Source of the DNA: Kondoa subrosea
Taxonomy: Eukaryota
Length of the DNA stretch: 64,000 nucleotides
Reading direction: 5' to 3'
NCBI GenBank assembly: GCA_039545335.1
Contig: BCIN01000001.1
Span: forward strand, 1,919,129 to 1,983,128
Shown here: positions 10,109-55,707 of the stretch, piece by piece
Numbering within the stretch: position 1 is the stretch's first letter
How the letters are laid out: every line of letters begins with the position of its first letter
Position numbers and translations under genes: made by a program
The notes under the pieces: generated by a model
Database searches by the model: none
Seen by the model: only the letters and a program-made list of their open reading frames with translations
Told to the model about the DNA's origin: nothing

Positions 10109-13100
10109 ATGGATCTTGACGATCCAGCTACACCTCAAGAGGACATTCAAGAGCCTGTCGTTTCGACAGGGATTGAGGCAACTACTGAAATTGAAGAAGT
10201 CGAAGAAACAGACGAACTAGCTCCAAGCCCTGCTCCTGCTCTGCCTCTAGCTACTCAATCTGAATCAAGAGTAGCTACACCGAAATTGGATGAGCCTGAA
10301 TGGCAGGGAATTCAAGATCAAGTTGATATTTCCGTTGAAGAGCCTACGAAGTCAGATGCTGATTATGCTGCTTTGCAAGATGTCGTTATCAGTCAGTGAA
10401 ACTTATCAATCATTCTGACTGTCCCCCTTTCCTTATACAGTTGTGTTTATGTAGAATTGCAAGAAGATGCCGAGCAAGCTGAATTACAGCATGATGAAGC
10501 TCTGCATGATCTGAACAACAGAGTCGCAGAACTTGAGCAAGCTTTAGCGTCCAGTCAAGAATCAGCAGCTGCCTCAGCGGAGCGCGAAACTAGTCTGCAA
10601 GCTGAAAACGCGAGCTTGAAATCTGAAATCGATCAACTCAAATCTGCATCCCAAGGATCTATTTCCAAAGAAGATCTGGATCGTACTACTCTTGCGCAAA
10701 GCGAAAAGGAGAAGAGAGAATTGCTTAGCGTTGTTGAGAGGTTGGAAGCTGACAAGACTCAACTTGATGGTACGTCTAACCTAACATGGATTGACTTCAG
10801 CTCATCCTGTAGAATAGATACACTTCAAGGTCTGAGAACAACTCATTCAGCTACCTTAGCTTCTCTGCGACAACTCGAATCTTCTCTTACTACTTCATCC
10901 GATTCTGAAAGATCAGCTCGTCTACGTTTGCAAAGTATCGAATCCGAATTGGCCATTGTCATCAAAGATCGGGATTGGCACAAGAACGAATTGGAAGAAA
11001 GAGAAACGCAGTCTAAATCTTATCGAGCGGAAAAACATGCTCAAATAGTCAAACTACAGAACTCGCTCGAAACTGCTCAAAGAGAAGCTGAAACTTCTTC
11101 TAGTGCTCTCTCAAACTTACGTGTGGCTCATACTTCTCTTGAATCGAGGTTGAGCGAATCTTTAGCGAAATCTTCAGATTTGGCAGCTAAACTTGCTGAA
11201 GCTGAGATCGGCTTCAGAGACGATTTGGCTGCTCAGAAGAAATTGTGCTCTTTGTTGGAAGATCGTGATGCGAAAGCTAGCAAGAGATTGGATCAAGTTG
11301 AGCAGGAATGGAAAGAAGCTCGAGATGAGATCGAACAACGTGAAAGGTCTTTTGCAGAAGAGCTGGAGAAAGAGAAAGAAAGAGCAGATAGTCTTGAAAG
11401 TCGATTGCAAGAAGCGAGAGAATTGGCTGAGAGGCGTGCTATGGGAGTTGAAGAAGATGCGGAAATGCAAGTCGCTCTCTCTTCAGCTGGAACACCTGGA
11501 CCATCCTCTTCTGGTTTATCTGGTCTTCTGTCAACACCTAATGCCAACATGTCTTACACTAATGGTCGAACCTCCGCTATGGCTCTTTCACCTGCTGCCA
11601 GTCTCGCTACGAAGTTCCAGAAATCTGGTCGCTCTCATACTGAAGTTTATGCCGATTATGTTCGCATCCAGAACGAGCTAGCTATAGAGAAAGCAGAAGT
11701 CAAACGCTTGGGCGAATGTTTGAGCAGTATTCTTGCAGATATAGAAGATCGAGTCAGTCTTTATCTTTTACTTGGAGGTCTTGCATCATCCTAATGATCA
11801 AATTTAGGCTCCTCTCTTCCGTGAACAGAGAGCCGAATATGAGCGTGCAACAGCGGAGAATGCTGCTCTAGCTGGTCAATTAGCGCAAGTCATGGAAGAT
11901 CGCGATGGAGCAGAACGTCGTGCCATCAGCTCAAATCTGGACATTGATAACCTCAAACGCGAAAACACTACCCTTTCTCAGCAATTGCGTGATCTAGGTC
12001 GACAATCTCGAGAACTAGTACGAGAAATTGCGATGCGTGATGATCCCTCGATACAGGATCGCTCAATGGACGAACCTGATTTCGAAGACGAGATGGCAAC
12101 TTTAGCAGCTATCAACAATGTTTCGGACACGGATGCTGTCATCGATGCAAACCTAGTCACTTTCCGTTCTGTTTCTGAACTTCAAGCTCAGAATCAAAAA
12201 CTACTTCGAATCACTCGTGATCTTGGCCGTAAAATGGAAGAACAAGATCTCAATCTTCGCGAACGAATAGAACGAACAGAAAACGAAGCTGTTAACGAAG
12301 CGCATCAAGTCATTTTACGCTTACGAGAAGAATTGGAGAACGGTCGAAAGCAACTGGAAGGCGCTACTCGCGAGAGAGAAATGCTACGAAAGCTTCTAGC
12401 CCAAGCCTCACCTCAACGAAACACTCACTCTAATGGTTATTCTGATCCCTCTGCTTCTGATTCGGAAGCTTTGAGTGATCTTCGACGAATGCTAGCTGAT
12501 CAACAGGCCAATCACGAAGCATATCGAACCGAGATGACAACCGATCTCAACCGATTAAATGATGATCTTAAGACAGCTCAGACCGATGGGCGGAACTGGG
12601 AAGTTCAAGCGGCTAGAGCTAGTGCTCAAATTGATGGCCTAAGAGGTAAGCAGAACGACATTCTCCTGTATCAGTGAATCATTTCTGTTCGTAGATCGAC
12701 TTCAACTGGCGAATGATACAATAGATGGCAAGAGTAGAGAATCAGTTGAGCTCAATAAGACTATTGAAAGACTACAGAGCGCACTAGCTCGTCAAGACGA
12801 TGCTGTGTACCAAGTCAACGAGCAAGTGATGTCTCTTCGAAGCGAACGCGACCGTTTTAAGAACGATATTCGCAACCTGACCTCGGAGCGAGAAGTTTGG
12901 AAGGTGAAGCTTGTTCGAAGATTACTGATGGGGTTGCTGAATTGTGCCGTCAACAGAATACCGAAGCACGGCTGACTGCAGAAAACACCTCACTCGGCAC
13001 AGAACGCTCGCAACTGTCTGATCTCATGCGGAATCTGCAGACTATGCAGCATGAGATTGAGAGAGCATCTGGCGAAGCTCGGACTCGCTTGGAAGAGCAA

Positions 13101-17199: not shown

Positions 17200-20100
17200 T
17201 TATTTGAAGAGCTTGGATATGAAATGCTTGATACCGCTTTCTTTGCTTGAAGTGGAAAGAGAGCTTGGTGTTTTAGGACGAGCCATGAATCGAGAGCGAA
17301 GCGAGAATGCTGATTTGGTAGATGAGAAAGAAGGTCTTGCAGCGGCTTCGCTATCATATTGACGAGAAAGGTCGCACGAACGCCTGAGCACCTCGCGACT
17401 GTCGAAGCTTGGTTTACTTGAGGTGCTTGTGTTCATAAATTCGCGACACGTTGATACGGTACTGCGATTGAGTGGTGCAGTATGGAAGCGCAAAGTATTA
17501 TCTTCCACATATGGGGCTTGATGGACCAGTCTTGCAATTGGAGCTCTCCTTGCAGGTGTAGAAACTGTAGAGTTTGTCTAAAGCTTAGCAAGGAAAGCCA
17601 AGCCTCAAAGCAATGGGACTACTCACGAGAAGTTACGGAAGATTTGGAATTAGCAGGAGATTGTCCTTGGACAGGAGACTGATTTACTTTTCCGATATTT
17701 TCCTCTTTTGTAGAGCTAACTGGTGTGGGAGCGAACGAAAGTCGAATGCGCACTGTTGCAAAGTGTTAGCTTTTACAAGTTGATGCGGATTGAACAACAA
17801 ACTCTGCTGAGAACTGGGAGCGGTGAAAGATCTCGCTCTAGTGTTGACTACTTGTGTGCCGGTAAGCAGGGCAGGAGAAGCTTTGGATCTCAAAGAGCGA
17901 GCTGAAGCTGGGCGGAAAGGGGAAGGGGCGAAGGGCCGTTGCTCTTCACTTAAGCTCTTTCGAGCCTCTTTTACTATATTTTGGATTTTGTCTGTGAAAT
18001 CTTGAACTGGGTCGACAGGCGAAGCTGTAGTCCGGTCTGAAGTATATAAAGAAGAGGGACCTGTCCAACAATCTAAGCCCCGGCATTCACTTCAGATAGG
18101 GATAACTCACTGTTATCGGCACTGGACGACGCGATCGACTCGCCTTCGACCAAAGAGAAGCTAGAAGAAGGTCTCTTGCGGGTGATGGATCTCGATCGCG
18201 ATAAGGAAGAAGCCAGAGTATGTAAAGAAAGCGAAGAGCTCTTGGTAGATAGAGCTCGTCGAGGCTTATGTAAACGATTACTCTTGATGCTCTGACGACT
18301 TGCATTGGGCGATGCTACAACAGCGGTTGTGTCTTCACCCATCTGCTCAGACACAGCAATCCGAGGTGAATCTAGAAGGTAAATTAGCAGATTTTCGAGA
18401 TATACTGGCGAGAAGTTTACATTCTACATTCTTGACAGGAGAAGTAGCTCGAGCAGGACTATATTGACTTGTGTTCAGAAAATCTGCTTCCGGCCAAGAG
18501 TAAGCTCCGCTCTATGCAAATGCCTAAGCTTTACCTTTGACCTTGTCTTGTGCAACCCTCAAAGATGGCACAGGTGGAGCGTAAGGATCCTTGCAAGGAG
18601 ATAAAGGTCGAGATGAAGGTGATCTGATGCTGGAGCTGAGGTTTGATTTGGCTGGCGTGTTGTCATCGTTGTACTTCGCACGCCGGACAGAAGTAGGTAT
18701 ATGCACCTGAATTCTTGGTTGGATGTGAAGAGGTGTGCGAGGAGTAGAGGGAGCAGAAGTGATTACTAGTCACGGAGTCAAGCATCGACTAGAGCCAATG
18801 AAAGCGCTACTTACCCGAGTCTCGGTATATTTTAACCGGAGCAGGCTTGCGTTTTGGTGTTGAAGGTGAAGCTGTTACAGGTTTAAGATGTTTGGCAGCA
18901 CTTCGAGGTGTTTGAGCCAAGACACTGTTCGAGATTTCGCCTAAAGCAGATACAGATGACGGTCGGGCAGCAAGTGACAGCGTTGATTTGGCATCCAAGC
19001 TCAACGAAGTATGATTGGCTAACGTAGAACATGTGTCAGTAAGTGCAAGGACAGCTTGGGCTGTAGCTCACCTAGTTTCGGTCTTCGCACAGGTCTCTGG
19101 CCGAAGAAGTCATGTTCTTCAGCTCTTGCACAGCTTCTCATACGAATTTCGACATCAGCTTCAACCATTTGAGCAATCAGGTTTGCGAAGTCTGGAGAGA
19201 TATCGAATTTGCCATAGATCTGATTGGTGAGGGTTCGATTGTAGTAAACCTCCAGAGCTTCTTTTGTCAGGAACTCTTCACCGTCATGAGCCTCGAAAGC
19301 TGCACGATGCAATCAGCAAGCATTCGAAATTCCGAAATGAGAATGACTGACGTGTTCTGCCAACTACAATTTCGTAGAAAGTAACTCCCAAGCTCCAAAT
19401 ATCCGCCAATCGCTCATCGTGATCTTTTCCCTTTGCTCTTTCTGGCGAAAGGTATTCAGGTGCTGACAGCAACAATGAGTCGGCAGCCATTAAACAGTGA
19501 CGAGAACACTGACTACCCCAGCTGAGCTGACTCCTGAACGCAGGTCTTTTCGGGTCGGTCTCAAGTGAGTAAGATTGAGCAAAGCCAAAGTCACAAAGTC
19601 GAGGCGAATCGTCGTCACCAAGGAGTATGTTAGCGGGCTTAATGTCATTGTGAGCGACACCTGATACACTATCAGAGAAGATTCAGCAGCGAAAGAACAT
19701 TGTTTACCGTTTGTGTGCAGATAGCTGACAGCACTGAGCAGGGCTTTGAAGTAGACTCTTGCTTTACTTTCGGGGAGTTCAACTGGAATCAAGCGAGGAT
19801 GATAGTCCATGACCACAAGAGCATCTGTACACATAGACTCAGCTTCAATATAAAAAGCTTCGAACAGAACTTACAGCTGGGAGTGATGACGAAATCTTGG
19901 AAGTGTACAATATTGGGATGCGGCCTGCGCTTGAAGTCTCGCAAGACTTTGAACTCGGTCCACAAGCTTCGAACGCGAGCAGCTGTGGTGCTGGTTTTGC
20001 TTCTGTGCACGAGTTTGATGGCTAGAATTTCGTTGTCGTCGCGATTCTGAACCCTCCACACGCTGCCCCAATTGCCTATGGCTCTTGCTCAGAGAATGTG

Positions 20101-20842: not shown

Positions 20843-23476
20843 CTACGCCTTCAGCGCTTCAGCAGCCCGCAACATCGCTTGTCGCAAGTTTGATAATTGC
20901 TCATTCGCCAGCTTCGCATCCTTGTCCAGCGTGATAGCTTCTGTTAAACCTGGCAGACTTACAGCTCCGTAGCCGAGCCACTAAAGAGGTGATATTAGTC
21001 CGATTTCAGAAATCAGATCAAAACTAACTCTACCGCTATACGTTCCAATTCGTAAGCATTATCATTCAACGCATTGACAGGAAGACTTACGGAGCGATAC
21101 CAAGATGTCTATACCAAGGTCTATTCGGTAATCCCTTCTCGGAAAGAAAAGCCATCTCGAACGCTTTCAGTCGGACATTGAGCAGTTTGGCTTTACGTTC
21201 TGCCTTGTTCTTCGCTGAGCGATGTCGTTTGGAGTGATTCAACGTATATTGAGCTTGCAGACCAAGTCTTTCTGCTTCAATGGCATTGGCGGCTGATATG
21301 ACCTCATTAACCGCTTCTCGCAACGAAGTGATGTTCAGATCATGGAAAGAGCCATGGATAGGTGTTACTGTTTTGGCCAAATGAGAGATCTTGTTGACTC
21401 CATTGTCCAATTCCCGAGCATAATCGACGAGATTGAGAGGCAGAACAAGGTTATGGGCTGCCTCCAGTACTGCTAGACCCATCACTTGTGCGATAGCAAC
21501 TTTGCGCTTGCCCGAAGGATCTCCATACTTTTCCATCCATTCTTGACTGTCGTACATCTGTTGATCTTATAAGCTTTCCAACACCAATACAATGTTTTAA
21601 CCTGAATCACTGACCGAATGATAGTGATAGACTTTACACACATTCCGTTAGCTCAATATCCTAAAGAAAGGATTTATCTTACCTGGATCTTTACTGCTAA
21701 AGGTGAACCCAACATCAACTGAAGCTATCCCAAGTCTTTGTAAGAAGACCGTATAATCGGATCCAGAACCTAATTGAGGTAGATGATCGTATTTTGCCAG
21801 ATAGTCAGCAAGCGTAGTATTAGCTTCATCAGGCGCAGCGACTTTAGCTGTTACTCTTTTGAATAGAGAAGCGAGAGAAGGTGAGGCTGCGAATTTGAAG
21901 ATGCTGCCTGCTACAGCAACGTCCACGTTCAGATACAGTGCGACCCTTTTCTGTATCATCTTCGAAAAGTCTTCACCAAATTCAGTGCTTCCGATCTGTT
22001 TGAGATTCTTCAGTTTTAGGCGCACAAATAGGCACAGCGAGCGAATGACTCACAAGTCCATACTCCTCGGCATCCCAAGAAGCGAACACAATCGTTCTTC
22101 GAGGCCTCCAACCCTTCTTTAGCAAAGCACCAACACCCTGCACAACCTGAGTCATAGCAGCTGTCCCGCTGATCGGATCACTAGCTCCTTTATCCCAAGC
22201 ATCCCGATGATTACCAACAAAGATGATCTCCTCTTCCGCTTCTCGACCAGGAATGACAGCATACATATTATAAATGGGTTTGATGCTTTCGTGAACTTGA
22301 TTATTCATTTCTACTTGAACTTCGGAAGGACCGGTATAGTATTCAACGCCTGAATTCGTCAATCCTCCATTCCATTCCGGTATTTGCTGACCAAGACCGT
22401 TCAAACTCTTTAACAAGGGTAAAGCATCTTCATAGCTGATTGGTAAAGAAGGGATTCTAGGTATGCTGAGATTCGGATCTTTCGTATCTAGACGAGTAGC
22501 ATTCTTGTAAGAAGGCAAACCGGGAGTAGTTGGATCACCAGGATAGAGAGATAGGAATTGGACTGAACCTCTTTGCACTGATGTGGGCTGACGAGCTGGT
22601 CCATTCGGATATGCTTCATAGCCATTCTCAATAGTGATCTCTCCATCGTCTCCAGGGTCAGAATAGATCAAGACGCCTGTACATTCAATCAGATCTATTT
22701 GCGGCATGGCTTGGAGACCCACCAATTGCCCCTGCGTTTTCTGCTTGACTAACTTTCAAGCCTCTAAAGATATGACCGTACTTGACTATCAAGATCTTTC
22801 CTTTCAAGTTTACACCTTCTTTCGCCAATCTTTCGAAATCTTCTCTAGTTCCATAATTTCCAAAGACCAATTCTCCTTTCGCTCTTCCACCTTTTGAGAA
22901 ACCGTGGAATGAAGGTACATCACTTTCTTCATGACCAGGGAAATTCCGTTCTTTTAATCCAGCTTGAAAGATCATACTCCCGTTTGAATCGAGCATCGAG
23001 AGAGAAGAATTACCCAACGGATGGTTTACGAGAGTGTAGTAAGTATCTAAATGAATTCTAGCTTTTCGTCCAACGTTCAAATCAAAGGCAGATTGAGATT
23101 CGATGGAACCAGATTCAAAGATCTCATCGCTCTTCTTCACATTCAACGCTTCCTCCCACTGTCTTCGCAAGATTTCGACTGATCTCAGACCTGCAGCCGT
23201 ACCCGCTATATGTGTTGACGAAGTAAGTGATCGAGAGATTTCACGAGCCGAAGTAGGATTAGGTCCATGTTTTAGGAAATAGTTCTCGATTTCAGTCTGA
23301 GTAGAGAAATGTTTGCGATGCTTGTATATTACTACTGGAGGTGCACATAAAGTCAAGCAGAGCAGAAGAAGCCATAATCGAAAAGTAATCAGTCGTATTA
23401 AAGGACTCCTTGATCGGCGCTCTACTGTACGAGGAGGGGTATCGATCAAAGGCGTCTTCTCGCTATATACAGTCAT
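20843..23476 (-). CDS. M28B glutamate carboxypeptidase II / transferrin-receptor-like peptidase (PA + TFR dimer domains), type II membrane
   Basis: N-terminal TM segment, PA domain (NYGTREDF, YGHIFRGLKV), GNHRDAW, GASDPISG, SWDAEEYGL, YLNVD, LGSGSDY, YHYHS, GLPNRPWYRH. Confidence 0.93.
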
Positions 23477-23619
23477 AACACAGGTATATTTACAGTAGCA
23501 CTTGGCTGCTTGTGGAGCAATAATGCACTTTTGTCTGCGAACTGGCTCGGTCCTCTTCAATTTAGGACTCTACAAGGGACATTCGTTGATCTCAAACGAC
23601 GACGGAGCAACGCAATGAA

Positions 23620-23840
23620 TATACAGTACCTTTGGTTCGCGTCTATGTTCGATCCCTATCCAACAAAACCCTCCCTTCACAAACCCCGAGACGCGCCTCA
23701 CGATGCCAAGCAAGCTCGATCCAGCGTCCAACAGCGACCAATGAATGATCCGTTCGGAGGTCACCCCAATGTAATGCACATCATATACCCCGACCAACCA
23801 GTCCAAGGACCAGAAGTTCGCAAGTGCCAATACGGGGCAA
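23620..23840 (-). ncRNA. Candidate omegaRNA (guide scaffold) of the Fanzor-like gene; boundaries approximate
   Basis: G/U-rich non-coding stretch 210-430 nt 3' of the Fanzor stop, same strand, with about six consecutive small stem-loops. The position fits Fanzor/TnpB omegaRNAs. Inference only. Confidence 0.45.
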
Positions 23841-24052
23841 CAAAAGAGACGTAAATGCTCAAGAGGTTCGAAAGAAATTGAGTTGTTGAAAAGGATGCCA
23901 TAGTATAAGCGAAGTCACAGCAATGTCGAGAGAAAGTTGAAAGAAAGAAAGCTGACATGAGCAATAATCAAATTGATACATCTGGTCAAGAGGAAGTTGA
24001 CTCACATAACGATACTTTGCCCGAGATGAACAACATACTGCAGAACAGCTTT

Positions 24053-27000
24053 TCATGCAGTTGAACGTTTGTGGAGATGATTGTTATAGTAGGGGTTGGC
24101 GAGAGTGCCTGCAATGCGATTGACCCAAGGTCCGGAGTTTCGTGCAGTTTGTTCAGCTTGACGAATGCGATTCACTGCAGCAGGATGCATGTTGTATATC
24201 GGTCGTTGACCATTCGCACGAATAGTTGCTTTACCAATATCTCCCACAGTACTGGAAGCACCACCATCTCTGGAGATTATGATTACCAAGTCAGCACGAT
24301 CCGTAGATTGAGCGGGAGGAACATGGCGATTGAAGTTGTTAGGTGCAGGAGGCGGAGGAGGAGGATGATCAGGAGCCATCATGCGCAGGTTCTTGTCAGG
24401 CAGTACTGTTTCCGGAGGAGCATTGCAAATAGTACAGCCAACTAATCGACTTGCTTCTCTCCAAACTCGGTGCTTGTGCTTCGTAGTGAGCCGCAAAGTT
24501 CCATCAGGCATCTTGCAATGTCTTCGCTTCTTGTGACTACCTGATCCTTGTGGTCGAGCATAAACAATCCTATAGTATAGTTTCAGCACATATCGCAGGG
24601 ATACAGTCAAGTAAAGCTTACTCATGACCATCAGGGCAAGCCCATACCCGACTAGCTATCTTGACACCCTTGTGAGGCGTCATTCCAGAAAGCCTTTCAG
24701 CAGGATCGGCACCAGCCAAAGGCGGAGGCAAAGCAACATCAATGGGAGCAGAAGAATGTGAGCAGAGCGCAGTAGTATTGTACGGGTGGACCAGAACCAC
24801 TCCATTGCCGCCATGAACTGCTGAAGATCTTGCCATTTCCTGTCATCTGTCATTAACAAAAATCTTGCCAAAATACTTTAGATTGCTTACCTTCTGAGCA
24901 GTGGCGCGTCTGCCTCGTGCTGCTTTTCCGTAACCCATCTCCCAAAACACAAGAGCAGGTACTCTCTTCTGCCTTGGCTCCTTCTCAACTGTCGGAATGC
25001 CTTTATATAAACTCTTTCGGCGCTTTCCTCGTACTCGCTTCTTTCGCCGTTTCCTATTTTCTCTAAAAACTATCTTCTGACCTTCTTCGAGGAAGTAGTC
25101 ACGAGACAAGTTGAAAGAGATAAAATCGTCTGCTTTCCGCTTTGCATGAGCATCCGCAGCCTGACGATCGAAATGTCTTGAAGAAGCTTTACAAATTCGA
25201 TTAACGAAGCGAGACATCGGGCCGTAGTGATCGCAGTGGATAGAGAAGTATTGAGAAAAAGCTTGAAGACCGCCAACAACGATGCTTTTGGATGTTTCTT
25301 CCAATTGTTTCATGCGCTCATCGTAACTTGGCGGTCCAGTCAGATCTCTGCTCTTGTATGCTTGAGCATTTCTTCTTCTCTTCAGCGCGACGATACGCTC
25401 ATCACGAGCTGTGAGGGTTTGCTCGGCAATCCATTTTCCTGAGATAGACCGCCTATGAGATTTGTATTCTTTCGAAGCTTCTTTAGTAGCTTCATCAAGT
25501 TCTTGTTGTTCTTCAGGTGTCAGATTAGGATTCGTATCAACAACAAACTTCACATGCTGCAATTTCAGTCCCAAGACCTCTCTACTTGTTCTTGCATTTT
25601 GGTCGACGGATTGTGTAAGATAGGTCTGACCAGGATCCACTTGGATCACCTTGCTCTGACCTGGCCCTGGATTATCGAGGAAGCGATCGGCAGGAAGAAG
25701 CGGATTGTTATTCAAAGTTGTTAGAAATCCAGTGTTGTCGGTGTCTGGAAATACTTGATCTACCAAAGGCATCTGCTGATGCTTGTTTGCATTGAGATGA
25801 AGCTCATCGTAGTCCGCTACGCGATTTGCTAAAGCCAAGTGAGGTTTCCTAGCTAATTGTTCCGCTGTTGCCTCCCATTCAAAGCAGAATTGCAGTTCTT
25901 TCTCTCCGTCGCTTTTGAAGTACAATTTCGTCAGAGGAAGGTCTTCTTTGCACTTTCGATAGAAGAACCGAGATCCGGTAGCGTTGCCTTTCAGATGCGG
26001 GGTGTTGGGAAAGGCGTCACGAAAGTTGCCATTCGGATGCAAACGTGTAAAGAAATGAGCCATAGTGCTGATTTGAGTTTCCACATCTTCGGATCTTCCA
26101 GGTTTGCGGCGCCTTCCGGTCTGAGAAGCAAAGTTCAGCTTACATCTTCATTCGAATTAAGATCACTTACACTATCAACAATCAACAGTCTTTCTGGAGT
26201 GATTGCTGGCAAGGAATAGTATTTCTTCTGAACAGCCGGGATAATCACACGGACGAGCAGTTCATGATTTATGGCAATAATTTCAGTCTTCAGCTTTGTT
26301 TTTCTAGGACAGATTTCGATGGGAGAGAAAGAGGGGGGAAGCTCATCGTCTTCGTTGTATGAAAGGGAGGTATATCGAGCGGATAAGTAAACCATGATCG
26401 TTGCTGCAGATTCATATAAAGTCTCGTTGTCGCCAATGACTGATGACCAATCAGCCCCAACTCGAGTGATCTCAAAGCGAGCTGTTGAAGTTGAATCTGG
26501 TACGGGATTAGGCGCATCGGGAATAATTTTCCGCTTGCGACCTGAAAGATCTTCTCGCTCAGGATCAAGAGACCAGACTAGAAGAGACCAGATGTTCATC
26601 AAAGAATTGACTATGACTTGGCGATCAGCTTGGTTGTAATCAAAGAGAGGTTGATTGTTGTTGTTGAAAAACAAAGTATGATTAGGACCCCAATTGTATT
26701 CAGGGAGCGGATTTTGAGCGTGTCGGTTAGCCACATAGAGAGGTTGAAAGAAAATTTGAGATAGCGTAGAGAAGGCCGTACTTTCTTCAGCTGAGATAGG
26801 TAAATTGGACAATTCGCATTCGATGACTTTCTTAAGAGCCGAATCAAAGTTGTGCTTATAGTAGCCTTTGAGTTCGCCCATAAGAAATGGAGCTTGGCTT
26901 TTCTTCAAATAATAGAATTGCTGTGATCGAGAGGGATTTCTCAGCTCGCGAAGGTTGATTTTGCTAGGATCGGTATGAGCTGGAGCAGTTGCTGGAAAGG

Positions 27001-27520
27001 CATGGTTTGCAGGAAGGTTAGGAACTAGACCAGGCCGAATAACGTGTTGATAAGTCTCACTTAGACGATGTTGATAAACTCCAGGCTGAGCTTTTCCAGG
27101 ATCGGTTCTGATAGTTTCCAAGACACCTTCACCAAAGCTTGTGTTAAACCGAATTTCAGGTTGCGAGATCGTGGGTATAGGTAAAGGAGGTGAGTCTGAG
27201 TTGATTGGGCTGAAGAAGACTTGGCCAACTGGATTTGGGATGTGAATGTCAGTTGTCGGGTGATTGGTCAAGAAGATTGGTGATTGCGCCGCTTGAACAG
27301 CAAAGCCTTCGTTGATAAGAAACCGGTAGGCACCTCTTCGAATATGAGCACCAAGAAGGTAGAGAGCAACAAAATGCCATCTAGTCCAAAGTTTGGCCAA
27401 ACTTCGAATTTCAGCCCTGAAGCGCAAAGCTCCTTTGTCACCGAGGACTGATTTCGATACACCGCTAGCTAAAGTGCCATGTCTTCTGGTCTTTCTTTTG
27501 CGAGTCTTCTTTGCAGGCAT
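24053..27520 (-). CDS. Fanzor1-like RNA-guided RuvC endonuclease (TnpB/Cas12 family), ~1104 aa, 4 coding exons: 27520-26171, 26120-24891, 24839-24622, 24569-24053
   Basis: RuvC-I VIQVDPGQTYL, RuvC-II region LVFWEMGYGKAARG and VVLVHPYNTTALCSH, Zn-finger half RLVGCTIC, RuvC-III ISRDGGASSTVGDIG, C-terminal GQRP.Y. Upstream FSPIEICP..IAINHELL and FKSDG motifs. Basic N-terminus MPAKKTRKRKTRR. Three 50-52-nt GT-AG introns join the ORFs in frame. Confidence 0.85.
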
Positions 27521-28948
27521 GCTATACAAATGTAAGGTGAGCTGCGGTGCGGTGGAGACTTTTCAAAACCAAACTTACATGTGAAGACAGATAGTACAGT
27601 AGGTTCAACAATATGTATTGAGTAGCAGAGAAGAAGATCCAATGGGACTGAATAGTTTGCAACGCGCACTTAGCCCTATTTTCGGCAACTGGGTCAATGC
27701 AGCTTACGTGCCCTCGTCACTGAGCGAAAGAACGTGAGCGAGGATCTATAGCTGCCGAAGCTTACTCACATTATGAAAAGGAGAAAGTGCGAACAGAACG
27801 TATATGCAGAAAACGAAAACGCAGCGAAGCCAGTACGAAGAGTGAAAAGTTTCGCAGATTAGAACGAAAAGGAGATCAAAGGACAAGCAAAGGAGTATCG
27901 AAGACTAATAAGAAGCGTCTCGACCCGTTTGCGAAGCGTTCAGTACATGAGCTGTCACGGTTGAGAGAAGAAGAAGTTTTTGGAAAAAAAGCCAAGTGCT
28001 TGAGTCGCTTCCTCCTCATCTCGAGCCACTACGATAGCGGAAGGAAGTGTGAACAGCAGCAGAGGTAGACAAATGTGCAGAGACACTTTTGAAAATGCAA
28101 CCTTGCGTTCTCTTGCTTCAACGAGCCAAACAATTCCCTTACCTCTTTGCTCTGTCTGCTCTCCTCATGAATGATCAGGCTGCGACCTACAGAGCAGTAC
28201 TTCACTTTCTGGTCTCGCTCTTGAGAACAGGGCGATAGTCCACTCCAAATCGATTCTTTTCAACGTTGAAAAACCCTTTTGCCGGACAGTTCGGAGCAAT
28301 TACTTTCACAGGCTGTATGCTACACTGAGTATGCCGCAACCAATCGCTGAGCAGGATCCCAAAACTCGAATGCAACATCTAGTCTTCTATTCTTTGTTCT
28401 CAAGTGATAAATATTTGGCAAAGCAACAAGTCATGGTGGTCTGTAGAGGGAAAGGTAGATCCTGGAATGCCGCATCGCCATCTCAATACACTTCATCTAA
28501 TATTCGCACTGCAATCTGGCTTCGACCTATGTTTTCGGTCATACTGCGAAAGGTTTCCATTGGCTTATGCACCTGTACTCTAGCTCGGTCAGTGAAGTCA
28601 TTGCTTCAAGCGTGATGCAGTATTTGCTAATCAATGCAGGAGTTACCCTTCTCACTTCAATCCAGGTAGCTAGCTGCTTTCTTTCTTGAGGCGATAGATT
28701 GGGTCGTGACACTTTCGCCTTTCTCGTACAGGCGGAACACTACATATTAAAGCTAGCTCTACTTTCAGTCGCATTTCAAAATTCCTTTGGTTTCAAATAC
28801 AAGTTCCTCTCAAGTCCGTTCCACCTTGACATTAGCATCGCAATACCGTCCCCTTCACTGAGCAGCTGGTCCATATGAAGTGTAGAATGCAAATCAGGAA
28901 CTAGATTCTTGTCTGGAAAGCGACAACATACCAAAACTGCACTCAAGT

Positions 28949-30067
28949 CTAAGCAATACGAGCTCGCTTTGAGCGTCTCAACGTTTCACTTGCGTCTTCA
29001 TGGGTTCTGCGAGCTGTACGAGTGGAAGGTCCTGGACTAGTAGGCATTCTTAAAACAAGACGAGGTCGTGCTGATGCAACAGGATTAGGAGCATGACTAG
29101 AACCAGAACCAGATGGAGCAGCAAAAGTAGAGCCAGAACCAGAGCCAGAGCCAGAGCCAGAGCCAGATGGAGCAGCAGCAGCAGTCTCACCCATAGTTGG
29201 ATCATCTGCAGTAGCCGAAGGATCTTCATCCTCTTCAGTTCTTGGATCGACATCGACGGAAGAAACAATCTTGGTCGAGTGCTTGCTGACCATTTGGCGG
29301 ATGAAGGTCATAATCTGTTCTTTGTTGAGCTGCTTGTCCTTGTTCTTCTTGCTCTGAATCTGATTTTGCAATTTCAACGAGCAAAATCCCAGCATAACCG
29401 TGAAAGGAGTTTTCTTGTTGCCCTTCTGTCTCAAAGTTTCCAAGATCTTCGAATCAAGCTCTTCATGTTCTTCAGGATGGTCAGTCAAATACATCCCAAC
29501 CATGACCGCGTTCAGCATGTTGCTTCCACCTGTCCAACCGTTGTACTTCAATTTCACCAATTCCGGCAGACTGCACGGATTGCCCTTTTGGATACACCAA
29601 ACCTCCTCTGCCATCTCTCCTGCTGTCAGGTCTTTCTTGCTCAACAAAGTAAAGCCATGAAGTCTTATTTTCATGTCCGTCTTCACATTCCCGCTCATGA
29701 CTACGAAAGTTTTCTTTTCGGTTAGATGCGCTGGGAATTTGGCTAAGAATTCGTCTCTAGCAGAATCCCATTTAATCGTTCTCAAAGATCTGCCGCTGGC
29801 TACTGTTTCTTCGACAGCTGGAGTTGGCGGATTTTCTTGACGAGCGCTCTGGGCTGTTCATGCTTTCATGAGCCTTGTAACAGATTGGTATCGTATTCAC
29901 ATACCTCCGCGACGGTGAGCCAGCTCAACCGCTGAAACAATTGCTTTCTTATAATCAGCAGCCAATTTCTGCTCTCTTCTCTCTTGTTCCTTCTTGTGCT
30001 TCTTATTGTTCGCCTTTATGGCTGAACCTATCATATCCTGCACATCTTCTCTCGAGATGGAGCTCAT
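28949..30067 (-). CDS. Orphan protein (2 exons): N-terminal coiled coil, globular core, Gly-Ser linker, basic C-terminal tail
   Basis: ATG at 30067 (MSSISREDVQ...), donor GTATGT at 29904 splices in frame into the 278-aa ORF, which ends ...LRRSKRARIA*. Confidence 0.7.
29129..29167. repeat. Hexamer microsatellite (AGAGCC)n encoding (SG)n
   Basis: agagccagaaccagagccagagccagagccagagccaga. Confidence 0.85.
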
Positions 30068-31708: not shown

Positions 31709-33277
31709 CTATGCTTTGATGTTCTGCTCACGATCCTCTACCACTTCTTCGCATCCTTCCGCTGTCGAGGTAACAAATGATCGCCTTCTTCGATCAACAT
31801 CGTATCTTCTCGAGAACCCTCGGTCGTCCCGGATCGAATCTCTTCCGCTATCTCTTCTCGAATCTCTTCTATCGTCTCTTCTAGGACTACGGCTTCTAGT
31901 TCTCCTTCTTTTATTGCTAGAATGACTGTCCTCTTCCGCAAGATCAAAGACAATAGAATGACCTTCTCCTCGATGCGAAGGTGGAGGCGATCTGGAACGA
32001 CGATGTGATGGACCTTTGTTCGGTGGCGCTCCACCTCCACTGAAACATCCAATGAAACTTCAGTCTAGTATCCAATTCAAGCGGTAATTGGGATTCCACT
32101 TACGTTTTGCTAAAGACGCATTGCCCATGAAGATGCGGTACACCTGTGAGAGAGTGAAAAGTTAGCCAAAGCTTCATATATGTACACAGTGCATAAGAAG
32201 GACTGACTTTGAAAGATCTCAACATGAATACGCCTGTCGTCAATCAAGACATTATCCATCTTTACATAAGCTCTTTCCGCTTCTTCCCTCTTATCAAACT
32301 CGATGAAAGCATAATTCAAACTATCACCAGTTTTTTGACTTCACAACTCAGAATAGTACCAAATCTTGAAAAGATGAGTTCTAGATCTTCTGATCTTGTG
32401 ACTGCGTTGAATTTACAAACAAAGAGCACGTTTTCTGGTGGTCGAACATCAGCAAAAGGTAAATGTCCAACCATTTCCAAAGTGAGAGCTTGAGCTCGAG
32501 CTTCAGCTGCTCTTTCTTTTAGCTTCTTTTTCTTCTTCGTCTGCAGTAGGATCTTCTAGTTCTTCTTCATCACCTATTCGTAACGATTTGAGTTGAGCTT
32601 TAGTAGGTACTGGTGAATCTGGTGGAATGACCAAATCAGGCGGATCAGGAAATGGGTCGTCTTTTGTTTCTGTTAGTACTGCAAGTGAAAGACGGAAGGA
32701 AATAATGTCAGACGCACCAAGTGCTATAACATGCCGTATCCTGACATCCCTCAAAGGTCTATAACTCGCATCCACAAACACCTCATTCAATTTCCTTAAA
32801 GTCGTTATACTTTCTTCTCCTACGACCTTCCCAAAAGGTACATGTTTCCCATCTAGATAATCCATATCTTGTTTCAAAGTGAAGAAGAATTGAGAACCAC
32901 AAACTTCATTTGCTACTGCCATTGAAAGTGTACCGAAACATGCATGCCGAAGTTTAGGTAGTTTGAATTCTGGAGTGAAATAAGGAGAAGAAGGGAAGTA
33001 GGCTGATCCACCTGAACCTGAATCTGTTGGATCACCAGTTTGGGCGATGAAATCTTGCTGAACATTGAAGAAAGAGCACAAGTTGTAGTGATATGTTTTG
33101 CAGAGCTGCGGCCACACATGTTATATTCAGCGTGTGTATCTCTCAAGTAAAGCTAGAAGGAGAGCTCACCTTTAAGAAAGATCAACCTATTGCGTTGCTC
33201 TGTCAGCATAATGATACGTGAGGGACAAAGCCACTCACAATCAGATCTCCGAGCGAAGTCTCGAACACCACAGACAT
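31709..33277 (-). CDS. PPIL4: Cyclophilin-RRM protein PPIL4 (Cyp59/Rct1-like)
   Basis: [80 protein letters not shown]-rich tail. Confidence 0.93.
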
Positions 33278-34608: not shown

Positions 34609-35454
34609 ATGTCTGTCCGCAATCTTATGAAACAGAAAAAAGCGACTGCCCAAATCTCGCATCCTTACGCTCGTACGCTGCTCTAAACCATCTCTAGTTA
34701 CAAGATAACTAATGTAAATGACAGGCTACACTACTAAAGGACTTTCCTGCTCTTTATGTTCCGTTCCAGTCAAGCATGAACAACTCTGGTCTGCGCATTT
34801 AACATCAAAGGGACACAGAGCTGCAGTCCAACAAGCTCAACTAGTGAAAGAACAACAATTAGCTGAAGAATCACGCAAACGAGCTCTGGAAGAAGAAGAA
34901 CAGTTAGAGGCAGAAAGTAGTAATAAGAAAGCTCGAACGGATGATGATGATGCAGGAGCAGGAGCAGGAGATTTACCTGATGGTTTCTTTGATGATCCTA
35001 CACAAGCACCACAATCGATATCGAAAGAAACAGAAGCAGAAGAAGTAGATGAAGAATGGCTAGCGTTTGAAAGAGATGTTTTGGCAGATAATTTGAACAC
35101 GAGCGAAGGAGCTGGTGCAACTATTTCTGCTCCCGCTCAGTTGCTGGATGAGGAAGCTGTTGATGATGGAGGAATTGAGTTGAAAGTACAACAATTTGAT
35201 GGTGTGACTGGTGAAGTGATAGAAGACACTCAGGAGACGGAAGAGGAGAAAAGGGATAGGGAAGAACGCGAGGAACTGATGTCTAGGATAGACGAGTGCG
35301 TATAGAACGATCCATCTGAATTGTTGCTGATTCGTCACTCAGAGAGGAAAGAGAACAGCAAGAAGCTGATGCAAGAGTGACTTCGCTCAAGGCCAGGTTG
35401 GAACTGATACGGCAGAACAAGCAGAACAAGCAGAAGGGCAAAGGGAGAACGTAG
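34609..35454 (+). CDS. ZNF830/CCDC16-like C2H2 zinc-finger coiled-coil protein
   Basis: ISHPYA.Y, CSLC...WSAHLTSKGH, LPDGFFDDP, VDEEWLAFERDV, C-terminal coiled coil. Confidence 0.8.
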
Positions 35455-54016: not shown

Positions 54017-55707
54017 ATGTCGGCTGTCAGAGCCGCAAAGCAGGCTGCAGGGAATCTCAGGCAGTATGCAACTGCGACTGCAAGCTCAAGCGCTATTCCT
54101 GTGAGTCTCTAGGCGATGTGATGGCAGAATTCCGAAATGACAGGCAAAAGCAGCCTATCTTGGAGGTAACGACTCTGTCCTCTGGTGTCAAGGTAGCTAC
54201 AGAGTCAACTCCTGGTCACTTTGCAGCCCTGGGTATCTATGTCAATTGCGGTAGTCGATATGAAACTACAGACACCCAAGGTGTCAGTCATTTGCTGGAT
54301 CGCATGTCCTTCTCTGTATGTTCTTTCGCTCTTTCCGATATGTGCTGCATCTAAATTCTTCGTACAGTCTTCCAAGAATCGAACAAGTGAGCAAATGACT
54401 GCCGAAATTGGTGCTCTGGGTGGCCAATTCTCTTCCACATCGTCGAGGGAAACCATGATCTATCAAGCTACTTCTTACTCTCACGCAATTCCACAAGCGC
54501 TCTCCATTCTTTCAGATACAGCGTTGAATCCGTCGCTGCATCCTGATGAAATTGATGTGCAACGAGATGCTGCATTCTATGAAATACAAGAGATTCGAGC
54601 AAAACCTGAGCTCATTATGCCAGAACTCCTGCATCAAGTAGCATACTCTGGGAAGACTTTGGGCAACTCGCTGCTGTGTCCTCAAAATCGAGTCAATGCA
54701 ATATCGCCGAATCTACTTCGAGCTTTCCATGAAGAATGGTACCGACCAGATCGGATGGTTGTGGCCGCTGCAGGAGTCAATCATGCTGAATTCGTCTCCC
54801 TCGTCGAAAATCAATTCAGTGCCTATGCTCCCAAACGCTTTGCTTCGCTCAATAACAGACTTAAATCCTCACCTTCTCTTGCCTTCATCCAGAAGCTTTC
54901 TACCTCTACCTCCTCCAAAGCTTCAATTCTTCCCGCATCAGCTACACCAGAAGCCTTATCCTCAGTTCCAGCAATTTACACCGGCGGAACTTCATACATC
55001 CCCGATCCAGAACTAGAATTCACTCATCTCTACATAGGATACGAATCTTTTTCGGTGCACGAAACAGAATACATCTACCCACTAGCCGTCTTGCAAACAC
55101 TGCTTGGAGGAGGTGGTTCTTTCTCAGCTGGTGGACCGGGCAAAGGAATGTATTCAAGATTGTACACTTCTGTTTTGAATCGATATCATCAAGTCGATTT
55201 CTGTTCGGCTTTCCATCATACGTACAACGATTCAGGTTTGTTTGGAATTAATATCGCTGTACATCCTCAAGCGACACATTTGGCACCTCGAATCATTGCG
55301 AGTGAATTGGAAAACTTGACTGTATTGAAAGGAAGAGGATGGGGAGCTAGTCAAGGGATCAGCGAGCAGGAATTGAAGAGAGCTAAAAATCAACTGAAGA
55401 GTATGTTGATGATGGCTTTAGAGTCCAGATCGATGCAGGTCAGTAAAGATGTGGTCAACGTTGAAGTTTAGGATGCTGATTCCAGATGGGATAGGTGGAA
55501 GATTTGGCCAGACAAGTTCAAGCTCAGGGTTACAAAGTTTCAGTAGAAGAAATGTGCGCCAAAGCGGATGCAGTCACGCTTCAGGATATTGTCAAAGTAG
55601 CCAATCTCATTCTCAAAAACGGCAAGAAACCGACGATACTGGCTAAAGGCAAACTGGATGGACTGCCTGATGTAGAAAGTTTGTTAAGAGCGCATGGATT
55701 GGCATAG
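54017..55707 (+). CDS. MAS2: Mitochondrial processing peptidase alpha subunit
   Basis: Presequence, GSRYE..GVSHLLDRMSF, SSRETMIYQ, glycine loop LLGGGGSFSAGGPGKGMYSRLY, RAKNQLKS. Confidence 0.96.

Follow-up and report, generated by a model that had tools for sequence, protein, structure and literature searches.

Fanzors are eukaryotic RNA-guided nucleases under development as genome editors. The window analyzed here is a stretch of 64,000 nucleotides from contig BCIN01000001.1 of Kondoa subrosea. Its minus strand carries, at positions 24053-27520, a gene of four exons whose spliced protein shows motifs of the Fanzor1 group in colinear order. An earlier reading of the letters alone (the sequence-only reading) had proposed that an unusually large Fanzor1-like nuclease is hidden across four open reading frame (ORF) fragments at this locus. 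The gene model, its relatives, its similarity to Fanzor1 proteins and its putative catalytic residues were examined. The gene is intact, single-copy and eukaryotic, is likely to be spliced as modelled, and probably comes from a fungus.

Gene model and splice junctions

Four ORFs are listed on the minus strand at this locus (26135-27562, 24843-26147, 24618-24842 and 24053-24655). A splice script joined them in frame through three introns of 50, 51 and 52 nt, each starting with GTAAG and ending with AG, in exact agreement with the join and the length of 1104 amino acids that the sequence-only reading had given. The spliced coding sequence extends from the ATG at 27520 to the stop codon at 24055-24053 and comprises 3315 nt with zero internal stops. 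The N-terminus had been described as basic, and the residues found there are MPAKKTRKRKTRR. The named motifs, D612, E844 and D1034 among them, all lie at the positions claimed. In the spliced protein FSPIEICP starts at amino acid 398, IAINHELL at 415, FKSDG at 518, VDPG at 611 and FWE at 842; in the C-terminal part PYNTTALCSH starts at 879, GCTIC at 977, SRD at 1032 and GQRP at 1053. The features are as follows, with motifs named after their putative Fanzor1 counterparts and block scores taken from the block-chain analysis described below.

24053-27520, minus: whole gene, four exons, 1104 amino acids
26171-27520, minus: exon 1, amino acids 1-450; basic N-terminus resembling a nuclear localization signal (NLS; amino acids 3-13), REC-like and WED-like motifs
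Amino acids 214-233, minus: REC-like motif in exon 1; block match of 10.7 bits at amino acid 214
26255-26329, minus: WED-like motif FSPIEICP..IAINHELL in exon 1, amino acids 398-422; profile positions 250-284 correspond to amino acids 399-433; block at 399, 14.7 bits
26121-26170, minus: intron 1, 50 nt, GTAAGT..CAG
24891-26120, minus: exon 2, amino acids 451-860; FKSDG, RuvC-I, helical insertion, basic run and RuvC-II strand
25905-25919, minus: FKSDG strand motif in exon 2
25635-25637, minus: codon of D612 in the RuvC-I motif VDPG, exon 2
Exon 2, minus: predicted helical insertion of about 230 amino acids, then the basic run RENRKRRKKRVRGKRRK; the helices come from a low-confidence AlphaFold model
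24939-24941, minus: codon of E844 in the RuvC-II strand ALVFWE, exon 2
24840-24890, minus: intron 2, 51 nt, GTAAGC..CAG, with an in-frame TGA at its end
24622-24839, minus: exon 3, amino acids 861-932 plus 2 nt; VVLVHPYNTTALCSH contains the putative first knuckle of the TNB module and the alternative-glutamate site
24783-24785, minus: codon of P879 in exon 3, a proline where Fanzors have glutamate; TNB block, 20.1 bits
Amino acids 928-932, minus: CPDGH motif in exon 3
24570-24621, minus: intron 3, 52 nt, GTAAGC..TAG, phase 2
24053-24569, minus: exon 4, amino acids 933-1104; second zinc knuckle, proline-rich insertion of about 45 amino acids, RuvC-III, GQRP and stop
24425-24439, minus: GCTIC of the second zinc knuckle SRLVGCTIC, exon 4
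24266-24268, minus: codon of D1034 in the RuvC-III motif SRD, exon 4
24200-24211, minus: GQRP in exon 4

The introns, also part of the sequence-only reading, have comparative backing. Introns 2 and 3 occur at the same codon positions and in the same phases in a related metagenome locus, L001. In a second relative, P0002, one continuous frame covers spliced residues 433-860 in the alignment and is unbroken across the junction of exons 1 and 2 (450/451). All three junctions are thus supported by comparison, and the transcript is likely to be spliced in this way in vivo. Past residue ~428 the P0002 frame reads through the position of intron 2 into an exon-3-like stretch without Cys motifs, which may reflect either degeneration of this copy or an artefact of the frame.

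Similarity to Fanzor1 proteins

A reference set of Fanzor1 proteins was assembled by scanning viral contigs with one short Fanzor motif from a published table, which yielded 57 giant-virus loci. Of their 57 ORFs, 40 have at least 370 amino acids, and the 30 unique ones among these were built into a profile. One member, the ORF of locus L003, matched the solved chains of SpuFz1 (8gkh, E 1.1e-31), PpFz1 (9cf0, E 3.5e-30) and GtFz1 (9cer, E 4.9e-20). PF07282 was present in all five reference ORFs scanned, above the curated cutoff in two and below it in three. Fanzor1 ORFs of about 612 amino acids recur in many giant-virus bins (L002-L058, IMG/VR contigs), and of the 30 long unique ORFs, 14 share one cluster at 70% identity. 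The giant-virus contigs also hold a separate TnpB-like form of 377 amino acids with OrfB_IS605 and TNB.

The Fanzor1 profile matched the spliced protein with E 0.0011 in a one-sequence search, over three colinear stretches at amino acids 399-433 (FSPIEICP..IAINHELL), 603-628 (DPG) and 873-888 (the TS..C motif). Comparison by hhalign recovered RuvC-I (P 0.0048) and RuvC-II/TNB (P 0.0065) in order; in global mode it returned nothing. Colinearity was then scored with a chain of blocks. The six blocks of 16 columns with the highest information content in the Fanzor1 profile were picked automatically, and the best colinear placement on the protein was scored. The spliced protein reached 66.5 bits, a score attained by none of 2000 global shuffles (mean 21.4, sd 4.8, maximum 39.8) and none of 1000 local shuffles (z 9.1). 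With two alternative settings for the blocks z was 4.7 and 8.7, and for seven long frames of the window that served as controls it lay within -2.2 to 2.2. The same analysis of two relatives gave z 5.6, 2.7 and 4.2 for L001 and 1.3, 2.5 and 4.4 for P0005.

Blocks were placed at amino acids 218 (REC region), 609 (RuvC-I), 874 (first TNB knuckle), 963 (second knuckle) and 1031 (RuvC-III). The block at 963 ends in the GC of GCTIC, and longer blocks also place amino acid 399. The blocks at 609, 874, 963 and 1031 follow the TnpB order, that of a split RuvC I/II/III with the TNB module between II and III. The matches at amino acids 214 and 963 are motifs that the sequence-only reading had not named.

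Look-ups in the ESM Atlas point the same way. DUF8286 accounts for 20 of the 30 clusters nearest to exon 2 (score 0.96, 170 shared features), and 22 of the 30 nearest to P0005 are DUF8286/PF07282 (score 0.95, 182 shared features). These clusters originate in Nucleocytoviricota, Mucoromycota and Zoopagomycota. The recognition value of exon 2, 1933, is under the tool's mark of 2300.

Relatives of exon 2 were sought by phmmer among 1.84 billion representative proteins at E <= 0.001, and just seven were returned. P0001 and P0002 are about 50% identical and P0003-P0007 are distant (24-36% identity); P0008 was added through a word-indexed profile search. These eight proteins, which come from run assemblies or ENA, carry no protein name. 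A metagenome scan produced 256 pattern matches, among which L001, nearly equal to P0001, was the sole confirmed locus. Nothing was found by a homologue search with exon 2 aimed at longer lengths or by a search with exon 4, and the viral contigs yielded no loci related to P0005. The eight-sequence family alignment has only seven invariant columns. D612 and G614 are two of them, which indicates that the motifs exceed chance, and the RuvC-I Asp is kept in all eight members. Over 456 codons aligned between the window protein and L001 the proportion of synonymous differences (pS) is 0.76, which is saturated, while that of nonsynonymous differences (pN) is 0.35. This result indicates that the protein is kept under constraint. 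Furthermore, exon-2 frames of about 400 amino acids are open in the window and in three relatives at about 50% identity.

When compared with a profile of canonical TnpB made from 51 ORFs, the Fanzor1-set ORFs themselves score poorly (E 8e-7 to 1), and the range of the window protein's family (5e-5 to 0.12) overlaps theirs. Weak library matches are therefore expected for this lineage. Together, the profile match (E 0.0011), the colinear blocks (z ~9) and the two Atlas look-ups bear out the proposed identity as a Fanzor1-type, TnpB-derived split-RuvC protein. Judged from sequence, the gene very probably encodes a Fanzor1-type homologue.

The anatomy of the protein was compared with the consensus of giant-virus Fanzor1, which is about 600 amino acids long. 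The window protein has about 150 extra residues before the WED motif, about 135 between RuvC-I and RuvC-II, which are predicted to be mostly helical and end in the basic run, and, from one zinc knuckle to the other, about 65 that include the conserved CPDGH and HC motifs. A proline-rich stretch of about 45 residues lies between the second knuckle and RuvC-III, where the sequence-only reading had placed such insertions, and the tail has 50 residues. The mean size of Fanzors is given as 620 amino acids (PMC10530073), so that a protein of 1104 is indeed unusually large. Introns and a basic N-terminus or NLS are reported for Fanzors as well (PMC10530073). The three GT-AG introns and the NLS-like N-terminus of the window gene are eukaryotic adaptations of this kind.

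The Fanzor1 proteins 8gkh, 9cf0, 9cer and L003 have in common with the window protein the order REC-like, WED, RuvC-I DPG, RuvC-II, TS..C zinc module, RuvC-III RD and RP. The window protein differs from them in its 1104 amino acids, its extra inserts, a C-x-H first knuckle, its single copy and the lack of a significant Pfam or PDB match. Compared with published descriptions, the depth of divergence, the size and inserts, the host-gene-like context and an apparent canonical D-E-D wiring of the active site are new. Words specific to the family do not occur in the supplements of PMC10530073 and PMC10432273 as available, a weak negative since table cells there are truncated at 400 characters and the first table lists just representatives.

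A CPDGH ... HC ... GCxxC pattern spans amino acids 928-981, between the Fanzor zinc knuckles, and is conserved at the corresponding places of L001 and P0005. This pattern may mark an additional metal site specific to the family.

The putative catalytic glutamate

In Fanzors, Gly or Pro replaces the canonical RuvC-II glutamate and an alternative glutamate lies downstream, an arrangement described as uniform (PMC10530073). Published work regards the alternative glutamate as essential. In SpuFz1, Mg is coordinated by D383, E541 and D606 (PMC10432273). In the family alignment, the RuvC-II strand of the window protein reads W-E-M-G-Y where three close relatives have W-G-E-G. As read from this alignment, Gly directly follows the hydrophobic RuvC-II strand in six of the eight members (WGEG three times, MGEG, IGTG and TGIS). 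At the alternative-glutamate site the window protein has HPYNTT, L001 has PEYAST and Fanzor1 has DEYNTS. L001, the sole Gly-type member with exon 3 sequence, therefore combines WGEG with the alternative glutamate as Fanzors do. P0005, which is 23% identical to the window protein, shows the same E...P pair (WFEAG and VNPAGTS), and its residues 357-378 match the canonical TnpB profile with i-E 0.00022.

By alignment, then, the window protein has a D-E-D triad and a proline at the alternative-glutamate position, the canonical TnpB pattern. Canonical TnpB proteins of IS200/IS605 (51 ORFs) have in common with it a D-E-D set whose hydrophobic strand ends in Glu, and a (V)NP.xTS..C string. Where SpuFz1 uses D383, E541 and D606, the window protein by this alignment carries glutamate in the canonical place and proline in the alternative one. 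E844 is atypical for a Fanzor, as the published ones show Gly or Pro in the canonical place and Glu downstream. The sequence-only reading was right about the Fanzor identity and overlooked this departure. The canonical TnpB profile did not settle which residue of the window protein corresponds to the TnpB glutamate. Judged from the family alignment and the pattern of the strand, the odds that E844 occupies the canonical RuvC-II position, equivalent to the Fanzor Gly, are roughly even.

The same pair of residues has been engineered. In ApmFz2-EP (G416E + E467P) collateral cleavage was gained and cis-cleavage was lost or weak; proline was chosen as the commonest TnpB residue at that position (bioRxiv 10.64898/2026.06.23.733943). 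The two residue states, Glu in the canonical RuvC-II place and Pro where the alternative glutamate used to be, are those of the window protein as well. ApmFz2-EP differs in being an engineered Fanzor2 with measured trans-cleavage, whereas the window protein is a natural, putatively Fanzor1-type protein and the likeness comes from alignment alone.

Active nuclease, domesticated gene or relic

We favor the interpretation, with a probability of roughly 0.55, that the locus is an intact, single-copy gene for a divergent, oversized protein of the Fanzor1 lineage, likely a nuclease with a D612-E844-D1034 active site, and that it is a resident gene of the host. From its N-terminus the protein would consist of an NLS, REC-like helices, WED, RuvC-I with D612, the long helical insertion, RuvC-II with E844, TNB, RuvC-III with D1034 and RP. 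It would bind a guide RNA and cut DNA through the D612-E844-D1034 triad, which would be the canonical TnpB arrangement and not the usual alternative-glutamate one of Fanzors. The gene behaves as a resident of the host genome and not as a recently mobile element. That its product is an active RNA-guided nuclease is an even bet. A broader interpretation, which we put forward tentatively and consider somewhat doubtful, is that a small Fanzor1-type family, so far uncatalogued, has become established in the host as an intron-bearing gene in single copy, and that within this family the catalytic glutamate has switched between the alternative (L001) and the canonical (window, P0005) position.

Several results weigh against the favored interpretation. 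The profile searches that the sequence-only reading had proposed produced nothing significant. The sole Pfam row for exon 3 was PF07282 (Cas12f1-like TNB) with E 0.18 and 12.4 bits against a cutoff of 26.3. PF07282 was likewise the sole family for P0005, at the homologous position (E 0.024, 15.2 bits), and in the gene's protein neither PF07282 nor PF01385 exceeded the gathering score. Searches of PDB sequences with exon 2, the family profile, P0005 and an exon-3 profile gave nothing relevant. Rows for a flagellar hook protein, SMARCC2, BH2331 and an alginate lyase (E 0.056 to 0.85) were rejected as chance, and NCBIfam gave nothing useful, its lone NuoI row (E 0.13) being taken as noise. The proposed structural comparison fared no better. 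AlphaFold models of exon 2 (8 rows, pLDDT 54.6) and P0005 (9 rows, pLDDT 45.2) were both of low confidence, and Foldseek with the exon-2 model, which is too poor for a fold search, returned zero matches at E <= 0.001. The models and the Foldseek result were used as evidence in neither direction. The RuvC fold is therefore a putative one. A MAFFT alignment of the family with Fanzor1 ORFs misaligned RuvC-II and RuvC-III and was not used for folding.

The remaining points on this side concern the active site, the 3' region and the statistics. With E844 and P879 the window protein lacks the rearranged site of Fanzors, its first zinc knuckle is reduced to C-x-H, and when blocks were placed without gaps the Fanzor Gly coincided with G848 and not with E844, at just 3.8 bits. 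The region 23750-24150 does not fold better than expected (z +1.42; 93 of 100 shuffled sequences folded equally well or better), and no Rfam match was found in the 3' region. When the family profile was used to rank 383 ORFs from viral loci, Fanzor ORFs took nine of the top ten places; since one of 20 column-shuffled profiles equalled this, the test is weak. Finally, the shuffle statistics are in part post hoc, since a reader seeking motifs had picked the locus. The motifs that this reader had not named, the signals of the relatives and the Atlas result are less exposed to such selection.

Whether the gene product still cuts is the question on which the strongest alternative turns. The host may have domesticated a Fanzor1-derived gene which, with the alternative glutamate and half of the first zinc knuckle lost, encodes an impaired or dead nuclease that serves as an RNA- or DNA-binding factor instead of a cutter. 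Bacteria have nuclease-dead repressors derived from TnpB, a possible parallel. The setting of the gene fits such a history. In contigs from two runs of one sample, a possible source of this DNA with an assembly of about 19 Mb, one contig per run matched 23000-28500 at at least 80% likeness, so the gene is single-copy there. No second copy was found in the window, no convincing inverted repeats flank the gene, and there is no transposase among the flanking frames; none of these marks of residence in a transposon was thus observed. The GC content of the gene matches that of its surroundings, and the neighbors with Pfam matches are ordinary host genes. Intron positions shared with a 50%-identical relative, the constraint on the protein, the Pro at the alternative-glutamate site and the degenerate first knuckle also argue for domestication. 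On the other hand, D612 and D1034 are intact, and both members without the alternative glutamate, the window protein and P0005, have a Glu right after the RuvC-II strand. A Glu gained in just those members that lack the alternative one resembles compensation, not decay. Moreover, some published Fanzor loci are without inverted repeats and transposases (PMC10432273), so a host-like context is compatible with membership in this group. Loss of the nuclease appears rather unlikely to us.

Decay could in principle have gone further, leaving a silent relic of a Fanzor1 element that is intact in appearance only. A look-up of RNA runs returned none for the locus. This outcome, the degenerate first zinc knuckle and the P0002 stretch without Cys motifs after exon 2 are what such a relic might show. 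They are set against a 3315-nt frame that is stop-free over four exons with three clean introns, synonymous sites that are saturated relative to L001 while pN is 0.35, and exon-2 frames of about 400 amino acids that have stayed open in the window and three relatives. A relic is improbable. Even less probable is an unrelated eukaryotic protein with short TnpB-like motifs by chance: the lack of a significant Pfam, NCBIfam or PDB sequence match, the lack of a usable structure and the choice of the locus by motif would suit it, but the score of the colinear blocks is attained by 0 of 3000 shuffles, the blocks at amino acids 214 and 963 match though the sequence-only reading had not named them, the relatives give independent signals, the two Atlas look-ups agree, all family members keep the catalytic Asp, and the E values of the Fanzor1-set ORFs against the TnpB profile overlap those of the family.

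If the broader interpretation of a switched glutamate is true, the window protein would be a natural counterpart of ApmFz2-EP as described in the preprint, and it would offer a test of how RuvC wiring sets cis- versus trans-cleavage. The window protein and its 50%-identical relative with the Fanzor arrangement would form a ready pair of enzymes for such a comparison. The finding would also mean that deep Fanzor branches escape profile-based catalogues, and the gene would be a candidate example of a Fanzor that the host retains as a gene of its own instead of carrying it along in a transposon. Should the protein turn out to be inactive, it would instead be a candidate for a TnpB-type protein domesticated in a eukaryote.

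The neighbors recognized by Pfam are listed below; most other flanking frames have no Pfam match.

21087-23569, minus: transferrin-receptor-like M28 peptidase, directly downstream of the gene (PA 22685-23569, Peptidase_M28 21982-22755, TFR_dimer 21087-21566)
32503-33120, minus: cyclophilin, an ordinary eukaryotic gene
19284-19682, minus: protein kinase fragment, likewise ordinary
34718-35305, plus: C2H2/JAZ zinc-finger protein, an ordinary eukaryotic gene
54197-55471, plus: M16 peptidase, an ordinary eukaryotic gene
10400-11794, plus: nucleoprotein-TPR-like protein, an ordinary eukaryotic gene

The M28 peptidase gene is spread over several frames and is thus probably split by introns too. A tandem of 12-nt AGAGCC-type units lies at 29099-29184, inside a 302-amino-acid frame without a Pfam match (28949-29857, minus).

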